A stretch of 57,890 nucleotides of DNA, taken from the NCBI GenBank assembly GCA_021784815.1, contig JAJYHK010000001.1, positions 1-57,890 on the forward strand, read 5' to 3'. The notes under the pieces were generated by a model. That model did not search any database, was not told where the DNA came from, and worked only from the letters and a program-made list of their open reading frames with translations. Positions 49,916 through 57,412 of the stretch are shown here, piece by piece. This DNA comes from a bacterium. GTDB lineage: Bacteria; Patescibacteriota; Minisyncoccia; Phycocordibacterales; Phycocordibacteraceae. Within the stretch, counting starts at the first letter, position 1. Each line of letters begins with the position of its first letter. A program made the position numbers and the translations under genes.

Positions 49916-51300
49916 CTATTTTGCTTTCGCTGACGGCAAATCGAGCTTTATCGAGAGTTCCTTAAGCTGCTGGTCGCTTATGGGTGCAGGCGCACCTGCC
50001 ATAAGATCCTTTCCTTCTCCTGTTTTCGGAAAGGCGATGACCTCACGGATATTTGGCTGATTTTCGAGCAGCATGACAATGCGGTCAATGCCTGGCGCAA
50101 ATCCTCCGTGCGGCGGCGTGCCGTAGGTGAAAGCGTCGAGCATGTGACCAAAGCGTGCCTGCTGCTCTTCTTCGCTGATGTTGAGCAGCTTGAACACCTG
50201 CGCCTGCTCCGCGCGCTTATGGATACGAATCGAACCAGAAGAAAGCTCGTAGCCGTTGAGTACGAGATCGTAGGAGTTTGCGCGGATAGAGAACAGATCC
50301 TTGCCATTGAGGAATTTTTCGCGATCCTCCGGCTTTACTGAGCAGAAGGGGTGGTGCGCGGCTTGGATGGTTCCATCCTCAAGCTGCTCGAACATCGGGA
50401 AATCGACCACCCAGGCAAAAGCGAGCTCATTAGGATCGTTTTTGTTTTTGCGCAGATCGGGCTTGTCGTTCCCGTGCTTTTCCATCGATTCTGCGCAGGT
50501 AAGGCGCGGGAATGGGATCTGCGTTACATGCTTTTCCGGATAGAGCTGCTTTACAAGCTCGATGAACATCGCTTCGGTATAGGAAAGCACATCCTCCTGC
50601 TCGACAAACGACATTTCAAAGTCGAGCTGGGTGAATTCCGGCTGGCGGTCGCCGCGGGTATCCTCGTCGCGCATGCAACGGGCGATTTGGAAGTACCGCT
50701 CAATTTGAACTGCTGGGGCGATTGCGGAAGCACGTAGAACGTGCCAGGCTCAAGCCGGCTCGGCACCACGTATTCGCGGCTGCCTTCGGGCGTGCCCTTC
50801 ATCATAAGCGGCGTCTCGACCTCTACGAAGCCGTGCTCGTGCATATAGTTGCGGAAGAAGGTAATGATCTTGTCGCGCATGCGGATATTTCGTTGCATGC
50901 GAGCGTTGCGCAGATCGAGGTAGCGATATTTGAGCCGAACGCTTTCGTCTACTGGCAAAGTATCGCCGGTGATGTCGTACGGCATCGGTTCAGATTCGTT
51001 GAGGACTTCAATACTCATGATCTCAAGCTCGATGTCCCCGTTTTGCTTCTCGGGTTGGGCGTTCTTTTCGGGGCGCTTGTTCACCTTCCCTGCAATGCGT
51101 ACGACGTATTCGTTGCGGATATCCTTGGCGATCTCCATGGCCGGCGAGCCCGGGAGCACGACGCCCTGGACGTAGCCGGAGGCATCGCGGAAATCAAAAA
51201 AGACGAGCTTGCCCTGGTCGCGGCGGACGTCGACCCAGCCGGAAATACTCACATCCTGCCCTACCCTGTCGCCCAGTTCTCCTATCCATGTTCTCTCCAT
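49916..51300 (-). pseudogene. aspS: Aspartyl-tRNA synthetase interrupted by a frame-breaking deletion at about 50702
   Basis: The N-terminal frame (OB fold, motif 1, ...LPQSPQQFK) and the C-terminal frame (ERYFQIARCMRDEDTRGDRQPEFTQ..., motifs 2 and 3) are offset. Only 2 nt lie between the K and E codons, where canonical AspRS has about 8 residues. Confidence 0.8.
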
Positions 51301-52268: not shown

Positions 52269-52690
52269 GGGGAAAAGATACCACAATTCTCAGGTTTTTC
52301 GCTTGATTCGTCGGCGTAGACCAGTACGCTCTTCACGCTCGTGAGCGGCTCGAAAGTGAGCTCCAGGCGCTCGTGACGGCCGAATCGCTCCTCACGGACC
52401 AGATGGCCGCTCAAGTGCTCGGCCGTGAGCTCTACCAGGAGAAGATGCGTCGGGCGGCAGACCGACGGGTTGAGATCAAGAACCAGCTTGCTCAGATGGG
52501 CACACAGGGCCACCAACCGGTTGCTTCTTTCGAACGCCTCGCTCCAAAACGGAAATGTGGCGCAGTATCTATTCAGAAGCCCCTATGACATACTCGCCCG
52601 CACTCCTAAAAATGTGGATATTTCAGTAATGTGCGCCCTCTGGAACGAGATCAGAACGGTATTAGTTTAACTGGCGAGGGCTTGCTGGCT

Positions 52691-52711
52691 GTCTGGGACG
52701 ATGCTGGAACC
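52691..52711 (+). repeat. Island direct repeat copy 1: GTCTGGGACGATGCTGGAACC
   Basis: One of three same-orientation copies. 20/21 identical to copy 2 and 19/21 to copy 3. Confidence 0.85.
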
Positions 52712-52757
52712 TTCTTAGCTAGGGTCTGTGTTTCTTACAGTGGGTCCCGAACCCATT

Positions 52758-53603
52758 TTAGTACCGAAACGTAGCAATTGAGGCATTGAATATCGGCAAA
52801 TCAGTAGCCCAGGACTGCTCAAGGGAGGATACAAAAATCGCATATCCAGTTCCATCACTCAGAGCAATGAGTTCTATTCCATGAAATGGATATGCCTGTC
52901 CGTTAACTATGTAAGCGTAGGTAAATTCATACTCATACGCCGGCTTACCATTAAGTTCTGTCGTTCCGGAGTCCAGTATCCGCAGGTTTGATCCGCCCGG
53001 TGAGTGCTCTACGTTGTAGAGAACGCCACGGGAGTAGGTCTCAAGTGTATAGGAACCGGCGGGACCTGCCGAAATGGTCATCGCGCCGACGGTGTCTTGT
53101 GCTGGATCTTCAAAGTCGACATTTGAGCCGTCTGGATAGTGATTTATTGTCCAATCCTTCGGATACTGCGTACTAAATCCAGCTTTCTGGTCGATATACG
53201 GAGTGCCACTGAGACTAGAGGTAGTTGTATCTGAAGTTGAACTACTCACAAAGGGTTGGTCATTGTACGGAATTTGCGAGAGCGTACCCGATAGTGCCGC
53301 GTTTGGCCATTCTTTTATGACTGTTCGGACAACAAGGGAGCGCACGAAAAGGACGGCAAGTATTCCGATAATTAAGAGCGCGATTGATGAAATCCATTTC
53401 CACCTTTTTGAATGCTCACTTCCTTGGATATATTGAATGCCTCCGATTATGAGCACGGCGCCCACGGCTCCAATGAGACCTGCTAGCTGGGCTCCCATAA
53501 CAATTAGGGCAATGTATAGAACAAAAAGTCCGTATTTTTTCTGCCTATATACCTCTCTTATCGGATTCGGTTTCGGCGATGCTGACGGTTTGCTGTAGGA
53601 CAT
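52758..53603 (-). CDS. Membrane protein with a C-terminal PsbP/DcrB-like (DUF1795-like) domain
   Basis: Three hydrophobic helices, a Ser/Thr linker and a beta-rich C-terminus (FSTQYPKDWTI...GKPAYEYEFTY). The fold call is tentative. Confidence 0.5.
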   Translation of the reverse strand: MSYSKPSASPKPNPIREVYRQKKYGLFVLYIALIVMGAQLAGLIGAVGAVLIIGGIQYIQGSEHSKRWKWISSIALLIIGILAVLFVRSLVVRTVIKEWPNAALSGTLSQIPYNDQPFVSSSTSDTTTSSLSGTPYIDQKAGFSTQYPKDWTINHYPDGSNVDFEDPAQDTVGAMTISAGPAGSYTLETYSRGVLYNVEHSPGGSNLRILDSGTTELNGKPAYEYEFTYAYIVNGQAYPFHGIELIALSDGTGYAIFVSSLEQSWATDLPIFNASIATFRY

Positions 53604-53639
53604 AGGTAAGTTACTTATAAGGCTATCATAGCTTCCGCT

Positions 53640-53660
53640 GTCTGGGACGATGTTGGAACC
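53640..53660 (+). repeat. Island direct repeat copy 2: GTCTGGGACGATGTTGGAACC
   Basis: Lies between the divergent genes 52758..53603(-) and 53707..54030(+). Confidence 0.85.
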
Positions 53661-53706
53661 TTGATTCGGTTAGCAGCCCTATGTTGGGCGGTATACGCTT
53701 AGGTCT

Positions 53707-54030
53707 ATGAAGCCGCCCATTACCCCCTATCTTCTAGTCCCGTTCCTAATCCTTTGTGTCTGTTTATTTGATTTCAATAATTGGGGGATTCCTTTTGCAG
53801 CGCTTTCCATATTAAGTTTTCTTATAGAAATCAAGATTCGGTACGGCTCTTTATCTAGAGAGAGCATTGGGAAATTTTTTTACACCCCGATCAAGAAGTA
53901 CGACCTCATGGGCAATGAAATTATTGATACCAGCCCGAAGTTCTCCATGGCTTCTGGGGTGCTGATAATAGTTTTTGGCGGATTTGCCGTTATGGCACTT
54001 ATGGTTCTCTACTTTGCGTTTGTTAAATAG
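53707..54030 (+). CDS. Small integral membrane protein (107 aa)
   Basis: Three hydrophobic segments. Low GC. Confidence 0.45.
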   Translation: MKPPITPYLLVPFLILCVCLFDFNNWGIPFAALSILSFLIEIKIRYGSLSRESIGKFFYTPIKKYDLMGNEIIDTSPKFSMASGVLIIVFGGFAVMALMVLYFAFVK

Positions 54031-54057
54031 CGGCTGTCTGCTCACAGTTGAGTCTCG

Positions 54058-54345
54058 TCAGATGACTCTTGTCTCAAACATTAGAGCGACAATGACCATC
54101 CCCAGCAGAAAAATTCCTGCGATCACGTTCCCAATTATTGTGAGGCGTACGGCAATGCTTTCGCGCCAGTTAGTTTTGTCTCCATACCAACCGCTATATT
54201 GCTTAGCAAGCCACGGCCACCATCTCTGAATTAAGGGCATGCCAGTAGCCCGGTATTGAAGATAGGCAATTTCTTTTCTGTACAAAATAAGGCACGTCCC
54301 TAGGATGGCAAGGAGGCCAAGAACACAAATATCTTGCAAAGGCAT
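54058..54345 (-). CDS. Small integral membrane protein (95 aa)
   Basis: Two hydrophobic segments. CATAAT lies 7 nt upstream of the ATG. Confidence 0.45.
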   Translation of the reverse strand: MPLQDICVLGLLAILGTCLILYRKEIAYLQYRATGMPLIQRWWPWLAKQYSGWYGDKTNWRESIAVRLTIIGNVIAGIFLLGMVIVALMFETRVI

Positions 54346-54380
54346 TATCGTGATTATGACACGAAAACGATTGGCTGGCC

Positions 54381-54401
54381 GTCTGGGACGCTGTTGGAAC
54401 C
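54381..54401 (+). repeat. Island direct repeat copy 3: GTCTGGGACGCTGTTGGAACC
   Basis: Lies between the HEPN-like gene stop (54424) and the 95-aa gene start (54345). Confidence 0.85.
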
Positions 54402-54423
54402 ATAATCGGAGATGGCACGACTA

Positions 54424-55434
54424 TTACTCCTCGATTTCCTTAACGTCTTTTCTTGGCCCGTATTCCCTTGGGAACACGTGCTTTCGTTTCGGCACTACTG
54501 CGATATCGAGACTTGAATCAATTTTGAGATGCTCTTGTGAATATGCGACCTTTCTTGAAAGGCTGTCTGTTGCAATATCTTTTGCTTTAATCATACCAAC
54601 GCCCTTCTTCACTTGTCGGTGTTCCAATTTAACGATCCTTTCGAGAGTAGATGATCGAAGTCGCTCAAATCGTTCTAGATATTTTGGCAGGTCTTTGTAT
54701 TGAAGGTCTGAAATGAAGTACCGATGTACAGCTTTATTCCTGAATTCGTAGAGGGTGGATAGCTCTGCAAATTGCTTTTTTGATATAAATTTCTCATCAA
54801 GAGCTTTTTGATGAATTGCGCGCTCGCTTATGTATGTTTTTCCACTCTGGAATACCATGCTCTTTTCGTAATTTGGACTCTTATCGCGCAGTTGCTTGGA
54901 GAGTATGATCCCATATCTTAAATGCGCGTCTATGGTGGACGCGTAAAGAACCAGGCCTTCTAGTAAGCTGCCGTCTTCTCTCGCTTTTAATAGCAAGACA
55001 TTCGTGGCAAGGAAAGTGCGGAGAAAATTGCGAAGAGGATCTTGATGAAGTTCCTCCCTCAAATCTCGTTCCCTGATCTTTGGATATTTAGTAGAGGCCT
55101 TTTCCAAAGCATCCTTAAATTCTCGCGCCTCTGTTTTGAGAGCTTCTGTGATTTCGCCAGTGCCTGCAATAGAGGTCCCACCCTTAAAGTCATACACGCA
55201 CAATATCCCGTGGTCTGTTTCAAAAAATCTATGCCAAGTAACCTTATCATCTACCCATTTAAAGTCTTTAAACAGGTCGTCGTACGGACCGAAGACGACT
55301 TCCAGTATTTCAAAAATTAGCGCCGGTTTCACTGAGACTTTCTCAACTAACGAACCGCCTGATGGAGGGAGTTCCTTCACGACTTTGTAGTGCTTTGGGA
55401 ATGCACGTGCGAATCGTTTTGTGTGTCCGTACAT
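54424..55434 (-). CDS. HEPN-like protein (RNxxxH motif), candidate abortive-infection/toxin RNase
   Basis: ELSTLYEFRNKAVHRYF carries an R-N-x3-H (Rx4H) motif at the start of a predicted helix. It is preceded by helical segments (LLEGLVLYASTIDAHLRYGIIL). The N-terminal 130 aa or so are unassigned. Confidence 0.5.
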   Translation of the reverse strand: MYGHTKRFARAFPKHYKVVKELPPSGGSLVEKVSVKPALIFEILEVVFGPYDDLFKDFKWVDDKVTWHRFFETDHGILCVYDFKGGTSIAGTGEITEALKTEAREFKDALEKASTKYPKIRERDLREELHQDPLRNFLRTFLATNVLLLKAREDGSLLEGLVLYASTIDAHLRYGIILSKQLRDKSPNYEKSMVFQSGKTYISERAIHQKALDEKFISKKQFAELSTLYEFRNKAVHRYFISDLQYKDLPKYLERFERLRSSTLERIVKLEHRQVKKGVGMIKAKDIATDSLSRKVAYSQEHLKIDSSLDIAVVPKRKHVFPREYGPRKDVKEIEE

Positions 55435-55436
55435 TT

Positions 55437-55925
55437 TTAGTCAGGATCGGCATTTATGGCGAACCGCAGATATTTTCTAAAAAGTGCTTCGACGCTTTCG
55501 TCTTGATTAGCTAGCCATTCCTCGAGCGTCTCCATCTCTTTGGCAAGTCTTTCTCGCTCCTCGTCATTCGAAGGTCCTTTTTCAAGTTTATTGTGAATCA
55601 ATCTTAGGCGCAGTAAATTGTCTATAATTTTTTGTCTATAAGCGACAACTTCTTTCCCAAACAGGAATTCTGTATCGAGAGTATCAAATGTAAACTTAGA
55701 GAACTTTGTTAGATCAACTTTTGCCGTAATTGAAAAATCGACAAGTAAAGTCCTAAATGCATCGAATACTTTATAACGGCGATCAAATAAGCTGAGACGG
55801 AGTTGGTCTTTGTTTAGATAGTAGCCCGACCGGTTGATTTTGTAGTTTTGCCATGCGACATATGCGACCGAGGCCGCTATTCCTATTTGCGCGATAGCCG
55901 ATACAATATCAACCCATATTTTCAT
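55437..55925 (-). CDS. Hypothetical protein with an N-terminal TM helix (162 aa), coupled to the HEPN-like gene
   Basis: Its stop lies 2 nt before the downstream ATG. TATAAT lies 9 nt upstream of its own ATG. Confidence 0.5.
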   Translation of the reverse strand: MKIWVDIVSAIAQIGIAASVAYVAWQNYKINRSGYYLNKDQLRLSLFDRRYKVFDAFRTLLVDFSITAKVDLTKFSKFTFDTLDTEFLFGKEVVAYRQKIIDNLLRLRLIHNKLEKGPSNDEERERLAKEMETLEEWLANQDESVEALFRKYLRFAINADPD

Positions 55926-56019
55926 AACGTATAAATTATACGCCTAACCGGCTAGATTGGTTTTAGTGGGGCGAGGGCGTTATCATGTAATAGTTCGGAC
56001 ATATGAATAAAAGACCTAA

Positions 56020-56181: not shown

Positions 56182-56505
56182 ATGCCTAAGAAAGTCCCCA
56201 CCGAGCAGACCGCAAAGCTCGCTGACGCCCTCCGGGCTCGGAATGTCCGCATTGCGGTCGAGCATTGGGATGGTCACAAGCATATAGATATTTTCGTGCC
56301 GGATGCCCGTCTCTATATCGAGGTGGATGGCCTCCAACATTTCGTAGACCCTGATCAGATACTTACGGACCTACGCCGCGACCACTTTTCAGACGGCGAC
56401 GACTTTTCCACCCTTCGTATCACGAATCAGCTCATAGACACGCACCTCGACGAGATAGCAGACGCGATTGCTGGGGTAGTAGCAAAGGAAAATCGCGCAG
56501 ATTGA
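56182..56505 (+). CDS. DUF559/Vsr-like (PD-(D/E)xK fold) endonuclease domain protein
   Basis: HIDIFVPDARLYIEVDGLQH...RRDHF...TLRITN matches the DUF559 core pattern (D...E-V-D-G..H). Confidence 0.6.
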   Translation: MPKKVPTEQTAKLADALRARNVRIAVEHWDGHKHIDIFVPDARLYIEVDGLQHFVDPDQILTDLRRDHFSDGDDFSTLRITNQLIDTHLDEIADAIAGVVAKENRAD

Positions 56506-56536
56506 CGCATTATTGAGACAGTGGTTCAATCCCGCC

Positions 56537-57412
56537 ATGACGCCGGGAGACAAGGGCATGCTTGATACGGTTAACCTCCTCGTGTTGCTTTTCCGTGCCC
56601 GGAAGCATGCTCCGGAGTTCGATGAAAAACAGCAGCACACTCTCACCGTTACAAAAGAACACCTTGCAAGCGCAGGTCTCACCATCCCCGTCTTCTCAAA
56701 TACGCTCAATATTCTAGCCGACAAAGGATATCTAACCGGCGTCGTGGTCTTCGAAGACTCCTACCACGCGAAGATTCGAGATGCCGTGACTGAGAAGAAC
56801 TTCAACGCACTGCTTGAGAGGTTCGACAGTACTGAGGCGGAGGTACTCGCGCAAAGGCTACAAGAAGCAGCTGTAGTTAATGTTGCAAAGGTTGCACCAC
56901 CGAATCTTCCAATGAGCAGAGAAATGCAGGAGGCGTTGGCGCAAGAGAGTCGCACACTCAGAGAGATGCTCAACGATAGCAGAGAGATGCTCGTGCGTCA
57001 TTCTGATCAGGATATTGCCATAGCAGTACTGCTGCCATTTCGTAGCATTGACCGGCTGCTTGAAAAGATGAATTCCGGTCTATCCTTCGAGGAAGTGCAG
57101 GACACGGGTATCTGGTACGATGCCCAGCGGTATGAATTTCATTTTGAGGACGAGGTTATGAGCACCGCGAATCGTGGAACTGCCACACTCGTACACCCCA
57201 TTCTCAATGCCCTCTTTAACACTGGTATCGACTACGTAGCGGAGTATTCAGACCTGCCTGACTTTGACGACAATGACCGTGCAAAAGAAAACAAACGATA
57301 TGCTGATGCCGTTCGACATTTCATTACAAAGTACGCTTCTCTGGCAGAGGTTTTCAAAGTCTACTCAGACCGCGTGGAGCTTCTAGAGCCATACCGCAGC
57401 GAGATTCACTAA
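56537..57412 (+). CDS. Hypothetical protein (about 290 aa)
   Basis: Long ORF. The track start at 56513 is a TTG, and ATGs occur at 56537 and 56558. No family recognised. Confidence 0.5.
   Translation: MTPGDKGMLDTVNLLVLLFRARKHAPEFDEKQQHTLTVTKEHLASAGLTIPVFSNTLNILADKGYLTGVVVFEDSYHAKIRDAVTEKNFNALLERFDSTEAEVLAQRLQEAAVVNVAKVAPPNLPMSREMQEALAQESRTLREMLNDSREMLVRHSDQDIAIAVLLPFRSIDRLLEKMNSGLSFEEVQDTGIWYDAQRYEFHFEDEVMSTANRGTATLVHPILNALFNTGIDYVAEYSDLPDFDDNDRAKENKRYADAVRHFITKYASLAEVFKVYSDRVELLEPYRSEIH

Follow-up and report, generated by a model that had tools for sequence, protein, structure and literature searches.

A candidate family of HEPN ribonucleases on mobile DNA of CPR bacteria, with an optional membrane-anchored partner

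A 57,890-nucleotide stretch of contig JAJYHK010000001.1 (assembly GCA_021784815.1), from a bacterium of the Patescibacteriota and hereafter called the window, carries two closely spaced genes on its minus strand that an initial annotation took for a dedicated toxin-antitoxin or abortive-infection (Abi) pair. The second of these, gene B (54424..55434), encodes a 336-residue protein in which an N-terminal α/β domain is followed by a HEPN domain and a basic tail predicted to be disordered, and the first, gene A (55437..55925), encodes a 162-residue membrane-anchored helical-bundle protein. The presence of a HEPN domain in B is held with high confidence. With more modest confidence, B is read as a member of an undescribed family of HEPN ribonucleases, distantly HepT/DUF86-like, which is carried as cargo on the mobile DNA of the candidate phyla radiation (CPR) and for which A is an optional partner. 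An obligate toxin-antitoxin or Abi pair is refuted by the distribution of the two genes, because most B lineages are without A and most A loci are without B.

The HEPN domain of B and its family

Residues 132-300 of B (54535..55041, minus strand) form the HEPN domain, as delimited from a structural model, Foldseek, Pfam, a PDB profile search and a family of 312 representatives. In the AlphaFold2 (AF2) model its four helices span residues 135-154, 157-184, 219-237 and 246-277, and an insert between helices 2 and 3 (residues 185-218) contains a further helix at 204-213. The catalytic motif R232-N-K-A-V-H237 (54724..54741, minus strand), of the Rx4H type, lies within the segment ELSTLYEFRNKAVHRYF and is followed by R238-Y239 to give the Rx4HxY form. 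The initial annotation had recognized RNKAVH as a HEPN-type R-N-x3-H motif within a helical C-terminal half, and this stands: in the model, helix 3 of a four-helix bundle ends in the motif, and R232, N233 and H237 are invariant both in nine orthologs and in an alignment of 50 diverse family members. D169, L172, R173 and E204 are likewise invariant across the 50, the first three of them in the nine orthologs as well. The segment D169-A-H-L-R173 (54916..54930, minus strand) lies in helix 2 and is the B family's form of the second acidic motif of HEPN domains, Ex3[KR].

As defined by Anantharaman et al. (2013; PMC3710099), helix 3 of a HEPN domain ends in an Rx4-6H motif whose arginine is directly followed by a polar residue (N, D or H), helices 2 and 3 are separated by an insert, and helix 2 carries a second, acidic motif that is typically Ex3[KR]. 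All four features are present in B, the acidic motif as Dx3R with D in place of E, and the fold features as read from the model. B is likely to be catalytically competent.

The HEPN assignment also agrees with sequence and fold searches, which point to HepT and to other HEPN structures. The top Pfam match of B is HepT-like PF01934 (19.7 bits against a cut-off of 23.5; profile positions 61-99 of 120), and NCBIfam HepT_toxin NF047751 gives 14.2 bits against a cut-off of 60. The same sub-threshold Pfam model is the top match in 8 of 9 B orthologs and 21 of 50 family members, and the best HepT-like E-value among B relatives is 3.3e-5. Other Pfam matches among the 50 members are to RiboL-PSP HEPN (7/50, weak), NTase_sub_bind (5/50) and occasionally Csm6-HEPN. 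When the B family profile was searched against the PDB, the only match with E<1 was the HepT toxin SO_3166 (E=0.034), with RNkvvHRY of the profile aligned on RNIAVHDY. In Foldseek searches with the B model, nearly all high-probability matches are HEPN structures (HepT, YutE, sacsin HEPN, AF_0298 and 1wwp), with probabilities up to 0.98, target TM-scores of 0.42-0.67 and E-values of about 0.1-1 (best 0.09). B stands outside the HepT family proper, because it falls below the cut-off, has no MntA neighbor and differs in architecture. The family is claimed by no Pfam, NCBIfam or PADLOC model; neither A nor B has a match in PADLOC-DB v2, where the 29- and 50-member family alignments give scattered matches only (E-values of at least 3e-4).

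Could this HEPN domain instead be non-catalytic, serving as a ligand- or RNA-binding regulatory module with a housekeeping role, like the HEPN domains attached to nucleotidyltransferases (NTases)? Inactive HEPN clades do exist (Anantharaman et al., 2013; PMC3710099), a few family members match NTase_sub_bind as noted above, and housekeeping genes adjoin some B loci. Inactive clades, however, lose the Rx4-6H motif (PMC3710099), whereas R, N, H and Dx3R are invariant across the B family, and the patchy distribution, low-GC islands and mobile-element contexts of the family also speak against this reading, which is considered highly improbable.

The first 130 or so residues, left unassigned in the initial annotation as a conceivable sensor, still have no match in Pfam, NCBIfam or PDB and no fold match in Foldseek. 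According to the AF2 model and the alignment, residues 1-131 (55042..55434, minus strand) comprise a lineage-specific α/β domain and a long linker helix. The α/β domain (residues 1-95) is modeled with strands at 27-33, 68-73, 76-83 and 86-92 and helices at 3-11 and 37-48, and the linker helix spans residues 97-131; W67, Y81, D82, G85 and S88 are invariant in the nine-ortholog alignment. A fused MNT-like NTase was considered for this domain and rejected, as no GSx10-20DxD pattern is seen by inspection and no NTase is found among the fold matches. At the other end of the protein, residues 301-336 (54427..54534, minus strand) form a basic tail with conserved (K/R)IDS and PKRKxxFP motifs. The tail is modeled with low confidence (predicted local distance difference test score, pLDDT, below 50 at residues 302-336; overall pLDDT of the model, 76), and D306, S307 and F321 within it are invariant in the nine orthologs. 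No transmembrane (TM) segment was found in B, whose most hydrophobic 19-residue window, at 1.33, lies in the N-terminal domain.

How large is the family? An index of 5.8 billion proteins yielded nine close homologs of B, either unnamed or from CPR metagenome-assembled genomes (MAGs), e.g., Candidatus Wolfebacteria, and a set of 185,579 species genomes contained only three B loci (Wolfebacteria, Paceibacterota and an unclassified bacterium). A direct search of GenBank phage records and plasmids gave no match. A profile search of 1.84 billion cluster representatives (clusters at 50% identity) returned 312 relatives, most of which match only residues 130-300 of B. The full architecture, with the N-terminal α/β domain, is present in only about 25 of the representatives examined; among those classified, 84 are stand-alone proteins of about 190 residues, 39 have another N-terminal region and 9 have a C-terminal extension. 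A word-indexed database searched with a profile from the wider HEPN alignment gave 10 proteins only, and an additional context of a HEPN relative (L115; homologous loci are given here by number) is without A.

Two individual members stand out. The ortholog P0008 (L006, 758-2431; 557 residues) is extended at its C-terminus by ASCH/DUF3850 and YunG domains. ASCH domains are predicted to bind RNA, and the fusion is consistent with an RNA-directed function. In a Paceibacterota MAG, a truncated homolog consisting only of the C-terminal third (L014, 5986-6339) is evidence for decay and turnover of a cargo gene. This remnant adjoins a UvrD-like helicase and an apparent DpnII/Dam-type restriction-modification cluster, as read from the translations.

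Gene A and its pairing with B

Gene A, the first cistron, runs from an ATG to a TAA stop, and B, the second, starts at an ATG after a spacing of 2 nt (TAA of A, then AA, then ATG of B), so that the gene layout is as first annotated. Both are real genes, because their full-length homologs have the same N-termini: B has 9 close full-length homologs, and A has 31 database homologs and more than 80 metagenomic loci.

The earlier description of A as a single N-terminal TM helix followed by a helical body is borne out by hydropathy and by the AF2 model. Kyte-Doolittle analysis and the alignment place a hydrophobic anchor at about residues 3-24 (55854..55919, minus strand), with a Kyte-Doolittle maximum of 1.8 over residues 3-21 and a basic C-terminal flank, YVAWQNYKINRSGYY. 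The anchor is conserved in the family alignment as IAxxxAYxAWQNYKI, and further conserved motifs are LRLxLFDRR, EFLFG, W..Q and YLxF. Because basic residues flank the C-terminal side of the anchor, an N-out/C-in topology with a cytoplasmic bundle is predicted. The model of A has a pLDDT of 91.6 and contains helices at residues 2-67, 72-81, 91-116, 121-139 and 141-150; the anchor helix continues directly into a four-helix bundle. A has no match among Pfam, NCBIfam, PHROG or PADLOC families, and no DNA-binding or NTase features were detected in it.

The A family occurs at more than 80 loci in metagenomes from soils, peat, freshwater and marine samples, and on 16 IMG/VR contigs. A direct search of GenBank phage records gave no match, and a plasmid search gave one 24%-identical hypothetical protein from a Paraburkholderia plasmid, where its gene is flanked by a RelBE pair, a gene for an ATP-binding protein and an IS701 element. 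Over 84 loci the neighbors of A are heterogeneous and often tightly spaced, including gyrB, an IS1 transposase, an ion channel and a Sel1 protein as well as an apparent RNase H and hemC, the last two assigned by eye from translations. No recurrent partner family was found among these loci. At L021 (14-3679), A lies inside a restriction-modification-like operon, between a gene for an 824-residue N6/N4 DNA methyltransferase (2-nt gap) and one for a PD-(D/E)XK nuclease (11-nt overlap).

A TATAAT box (55935..55940, minus strand) lies 9 nt 5' of the ATG of A and is a probable -10 element. The initial annotation had named it as a shared promoter; the hexamer and its position hold, but a sigma-70 consensus scan found no matching -35 hexamer and called no promoter there, and taken alone the box is weak evidence of one. 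Similar -10-like boxes stand 8-10 nt before the ATG of the A homologs at L015 and L017 and of the solo B homologs at L002 (TACAAT) and L112 (TATAAT). Across the start regions compared, a TATAAT-like box at 7-10 nt is seen in the window, L015, L017, L009, L002, L112, L006 and L007/L120, and no Shine-Dalgarno sequence precedes these A and B genes. The combination suggests that leaderless transcripts are widespread in these organisms or elements, and the TATAAT box probably serves as the -10 element for an A-B transcript with little or no leader. Unlike the solo B genes, the paired B genes of the window and L111 have no near-ATG -10-like box, and the B gene of the window has no Shine-Dalgarno sequence of its own. 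The paired B would therefore be expressed from the apparently leaderless transcript of A by reinitiation, and A and B are almost certainly on one transcript.

Do the two genes belong together? The arrangement of the window recurs at L111, where a 69%-identical B follows a 164-residue A homolog (42% identity, E=3e-39) in the same order with a 3-nt gap. At L024, a related gene with its HEPN domain at the N-terminus lies 24 nt upstream of A, in reversed order relative to the window. The co-occurrence expected from the initial annotation is thus found at these two loci, at the second with another architecture and order, and is missing from most lineages. Within the DNA available for each locus, A is absent in 6 of 8 informative B lineages (L001/L013 from Wolfebacteria, L002-4, L005, L006, L007 and L113/4). 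The closest homolog of the window's B (L002, 72% identity) and that of its A (L008, 65% identity) are both unpaired. L024 is the only one of 84 surveyed A-family loci with a B-family neighbor; apart from it, about 80 A loci have no B-family or other RNxxxH-containing neighbor. No A-HEPN fusion protein was found, no single protein being matched by the A profile as well as by the HEPN profile. Nor do the solo B genes have a conserved alternative partner, their upstream and downstream neighbors not being homologous to each other.

An obligate two-gene toxin-antitoxin or Abi module, in which A would neutralize the HEPN toxin B or sense on its behalf, is very improbable on this evidence. It would account for a small gene placed 2 nt upstream of a HEPN gene and for the recurrence of this arrangement at L111, and small partners are common for HEPN toxins, e.g., HepT-MntA. 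It conflicts with the distribution just described and with the lack of any fusion protein or PADLOC match for either gene, as well as with an A that is membrane-anchored and devoid of detectable DNA-binding or NTase features.

A facultative association is possible. Three A-HEPN adjacencies among about 11 B-family loci are far above the random-neighbor expectation, as roughly estimated from the counts, and a real functional link between A and B is plausible, if somewhat short of probable. A more specific proposal is that A-family proteins are facultative membrane docking or regulatory subunits, recruited at least twice independently by HEPN ribonucleases of the B family to give a split membrane-HEPN system. 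This proposal is considered unlikely; if true, a leaderless bicistronic mRNA would co-deliver the ribonuclease to a membrane anchor, and the pair would be a new two-component ribonuclease system peculiar to the ultra-small CPR bacteria and the mobile elements they carry.

Mobile DNA and the LOOT RNA

At six independent loci a tRNA-Gln(UUG) gene lies directly upstream of A- or B-family genes on the same strand. It precedes B at L001 (1948-2019) and L002 (817-890, also in the L002-4 group), A at L008 (2222-2295), L011 (2811-2882) and L019 (176-248), and the HEPN-A pair at L024 (447-519). The ATG of A is only 7-10 nt past the tRNA 3' end at L008 and L019, where A is possibly co-transcribed with the tRNA. 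These positions suggest a recurrent hotspot for cargo on the 3' side of tRNA-Gln(UUG). Neither the pair of the window nor that of L111 lies at a tRNA-Gln gene, and no tRNA-Gln fragment lies next to the A gene of the window.

Shared integration hotspots and cargo slots of mobile elements offer another explanation for the adjacency of A and B, namely that they are functionally unrelated cargo whose tight spacing reflects genome compaction. Members of both families stand independently 3' of tRNA-Gln(UUG), and the simplest view of the HEPN gene of L024, placed exactly between tRNA-Gln and A, is therefore that it was inserted beside a resident A. The heterogeneous and often tightly spaced neighbors of A, the unpaired closest homologs of both genes and the incongruent identities between the window and L111 (42% for A, 69% for B) fit the same explanation. 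It does not readily account for an order, strand and 2-3-nt gap that recur at two loci away from tRNA-Gln with A genes from different A sub-branches, or for a paired B that has no near-ATG -10 box and so depends on A for expression; moreover, both families are rare, and the three adjacencies far exceed chance by the rough estimate given above. Unrelated cargo is regarded as a less likely account of the pair than a functional link, though not far behind it.

In the window, both genes lie in a low-GC island of 3.4 kb (52500..55950) with a GC content of 0.40-0.47 against 0.58 in the rest of the window. The island also contains two small membrane-protein open reading frames (ORFs) and a gene with TM and PsbP-like regions, and is probably horizontally acquired cargo. 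L002 and L003 similarly have a low-GC B gene in a contig of 55-64% GC, and homology between the window and L002 starts 1 nt before the ATG of B and ends at its stop codon. In the same low-GC patch of L002, a gene directly 3' of the solo B (2069-2746; 225 residues) contains IRSQVVHLH, of the Rx4H type, and may encode a second, unrelated HEPN-like protein.

Elsewhere the neighbors of B include Mrr_cat (twice), NYN, T5orf172, Fic, an AAA_15/21 ATPase, an XRE-type helix-turn-helix (HTH) protein and NOV_C, and in one context a probable, weakly supported SIR2-like gene. On the IMG/VR contig L120, a large serine recombinase gene and two apparent DNA methyltransferase genes, read from translations, lie beside B. 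Such neighborhoods are typical of defense islands and mobile DNA.

The right edge of the low-GC island is marked by a LOOT RNA (Rfam RF03000; 56013..56128, plus strand; 70.2 bits, gathering score 46.4) in divergent orientation to A, whose ATG is 88 nt away. LOOT is present again in L120 (5232-5345, minus strand), 107 nt after the stop codon of B and on the same strand as B, and in the Paceibacterota MAG L014 (9084-9197, plus strand), 2.7 kb from the truncated B. A pattern scan of viral contigs gave seven further LOOT candidates, five reaching the Rfam gathering score and none with A or B. Besides the window, L120 and L014, the CPR-type contigs recorded with LOOT are L123, L124, L125, L126 and L128. 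Its conserved neighborhood comprises a large serine recombinase on the 5' side and an HTH protein and a ParB/DNA-methyltransferase gene on the 3' side. Because these conserved neighbors are mobile-element genes, LOOT may be a backbone part, or the integration target, of a CPR mobile-element family; B in L120 and A-B in the window occupy a variable slot on its 5' side. An alignment suggests a terminator-like hairpin and U-run just past the Rfam model. A literature search for LOOT found nothing in main texts.

LOOT could also be imagined as the partner of B, as a type III-like RNA antitoxin, a substrate or a regulator, since it lies within 0.1-2.7 kb of a B-family gene at 3 of about 11 B loci (window, L120 and L014). 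This is scarcely credible, given that eight B loci are without LOOT and none of the seven further LOOT candidates has A or B. In addition, the conserved neighbors of LOOT belong to mobile elements, L014 and L120 are related elements and not independent, and LOOT and B are oriented to each other in one way in the window and in another in L120.

The island of the window further contains three intergenic copies of a 26-nt direct repeat, GCTGTCTGGGACGATG(C/T)TGGAACCTT, at 52688-52713, 53637-53662 and 54378-54403 (plus strand, same orientation), where 0 matches are expected by chance. Copies 2 and 3 stand 5' of start codons on the minus strand, at distances of 34 and 33 nt, and the third is 21 nt after the stop codon of B. 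None of the fetched loci contains the repeat, which may act as a shared operator or promoter element or mark the boundary of a cassette. A structured RNA was considered and rejected, the fold z-scores not being significant.

Beyond LOOT, a DUF559 gene (Vsr-like endonuclease-related) begins 54 nt past the RNA and is followed 8 nt later by an unassigned gene for a 299-residue protein (together 56182-57412, plus strand); at 0.50-0.54, their GC content falls between that of the island and that of the remaining window. On the other side of the island, a class II aminoacyl-tRNA synthetase (anticodon-binding OB fold and tRNA-synt_2; 49916-51300, minus strand) is split over two overlapping ORFs, 50551..51300 and 49916..50674, which indicates a frameshift caused by assembly error, pseudogene formation or recoding.

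Proposed mode of action and comparison with known systems

By analogy with characterized HEPN enzymes, B would be the effector, a metal-independent HEPN ribonuclease that may dimerize to form a composite active site. Speculatively, the N-terminal α/β domain, and perhaps the basic tail, keeps B inactive until a trigger arrives; activated B would then cleave cellular or invader RNA and arrest growth, as the HEPN literature leads one to expect, and this arrest could provide a defense or addiction function for the mobile DNA that carries it. In most genomes B appears self-sufficient, a single-gene cargo with its own near-ATG -10 box that is found 3' of tRNA-Gln(UUG), by Mrr-type nucleases, by the probable SIR2-like gene, or between a serine recombinase and LOOT. 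In the window and L111, where it has no start signals of its own and follows A by 2-3 nt, it would be translationally coupled on the leaderless transcript of A. What, then, might A do? It is best pictured as a promiscuous small inner-membrane protein with a cytoplasmic four-helix bundle that normally occurs alone and would be, at most, a facultative accessory tethering or modulating B at the membrane; this role is speculative, and A would not be an obligate antitoxin.

Several points weigh against this account. Every HEPN match of B is under curated or conventional thresholds (Pfam, 19.7 against 23.5 bits; Foldseek, E-values of at least 0.09; PDB profile, E=0.034), and the B model is built from 9 sequences only, with low confidence in the loop at 239-241 just after the motif. 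Foldseek searches with A against the PDB and BFVD gave only generic helical bundles or uncharacterized phage proteins. The defense role of B is drawn from its neighborhood, in which some genes are housekeeping (Obg, dnaX), and B has no PADLOC match.

If the account is correct, an unannotated HEPN family of about 312 clusters at 50% identity joins the repertoire of ribonuclease effectors, and does so on the mobile DNA of CPR/Patescibacteria, whose immune and addiction systems are poorly known. A tight two-gene layout around a HEPN motif need not mean toxin-antitoxin, the B effector being usually solo and sometimes placed behind a membrane protein. The position of LOOT, an orphan Rfam family, beside large serine recombinases in CPR elements and the tRNA-Gln(UUG) hotspot may have wider use.

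Among known systems, HepT (DUF86, PF01934; SO_3166, PDB 5yep, 6m6u and 7bxo) is the best sequence and fold match of B. Both have a four-helix HEPN bundle with RNxxxHxY at the end of helix 3, RNIAVHDY in HepT and RNKAVHRY in B. B differs from HepT in scoring below the Pfam and NCBIfam cut-offs, in being usually a solo gene, and in its 336-residue length, which includes an extra N-terminal α/β domain of about 130 residues, 35 residues inserted after helix 2 and before helix 3, and a basic tail. In contrast to the type VII HepT-MntA system, no MntA-type NTase appears in the gene and domain tables returned for the B loci, and A, a TM segment with a helical bundle, has no NTase match.

Among the membrane-associated HEPN proteins of bacteria, Anantharaman et al. 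(2013; PMC3710099) described three groups in which TM and HEPN parts are fused, a design that has been suggested to link stimuli at the membrane with the degradation of RNA. The A-B arrangement likewise combines a cytoplasmic HEPN ribonuclease domain with a single-pass membrane segment, but here that segment is on the separate, optional A, from a mostly HEPN-free family, and B itself is without TM. Another parallel is Cas13b, where the accessory membrane proteins Csx27 and Csx28, present in a subset of loci, modulate the HEPN ribonuclease response. In Cas13b-Csx27/Csx28 loci as in A-B, a small membrane protein accompanies a HEPN effector in only some loci; the A-B locus, however, has no CRISPR array, cas genes or PADLOC match, B is a small protein with a single HEPN domain, and A has no detected similarity to Csx27 or Csx28.

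Finally, solo and modular HEPN proteins of the Abi type (AbiD/F, AbiU2, AbiV, RnlA and RiboL-PSP HEPN) are, like B, effectors found on mobile DNA and in defense islands, but no member of the B family reaches these models, and its N-terminal domain is new. HEPN effectors on mobile DNA are well known; new here are a family without an existing model, its N-terminal domain, and an optional membrane partner encoded by a separate gene.

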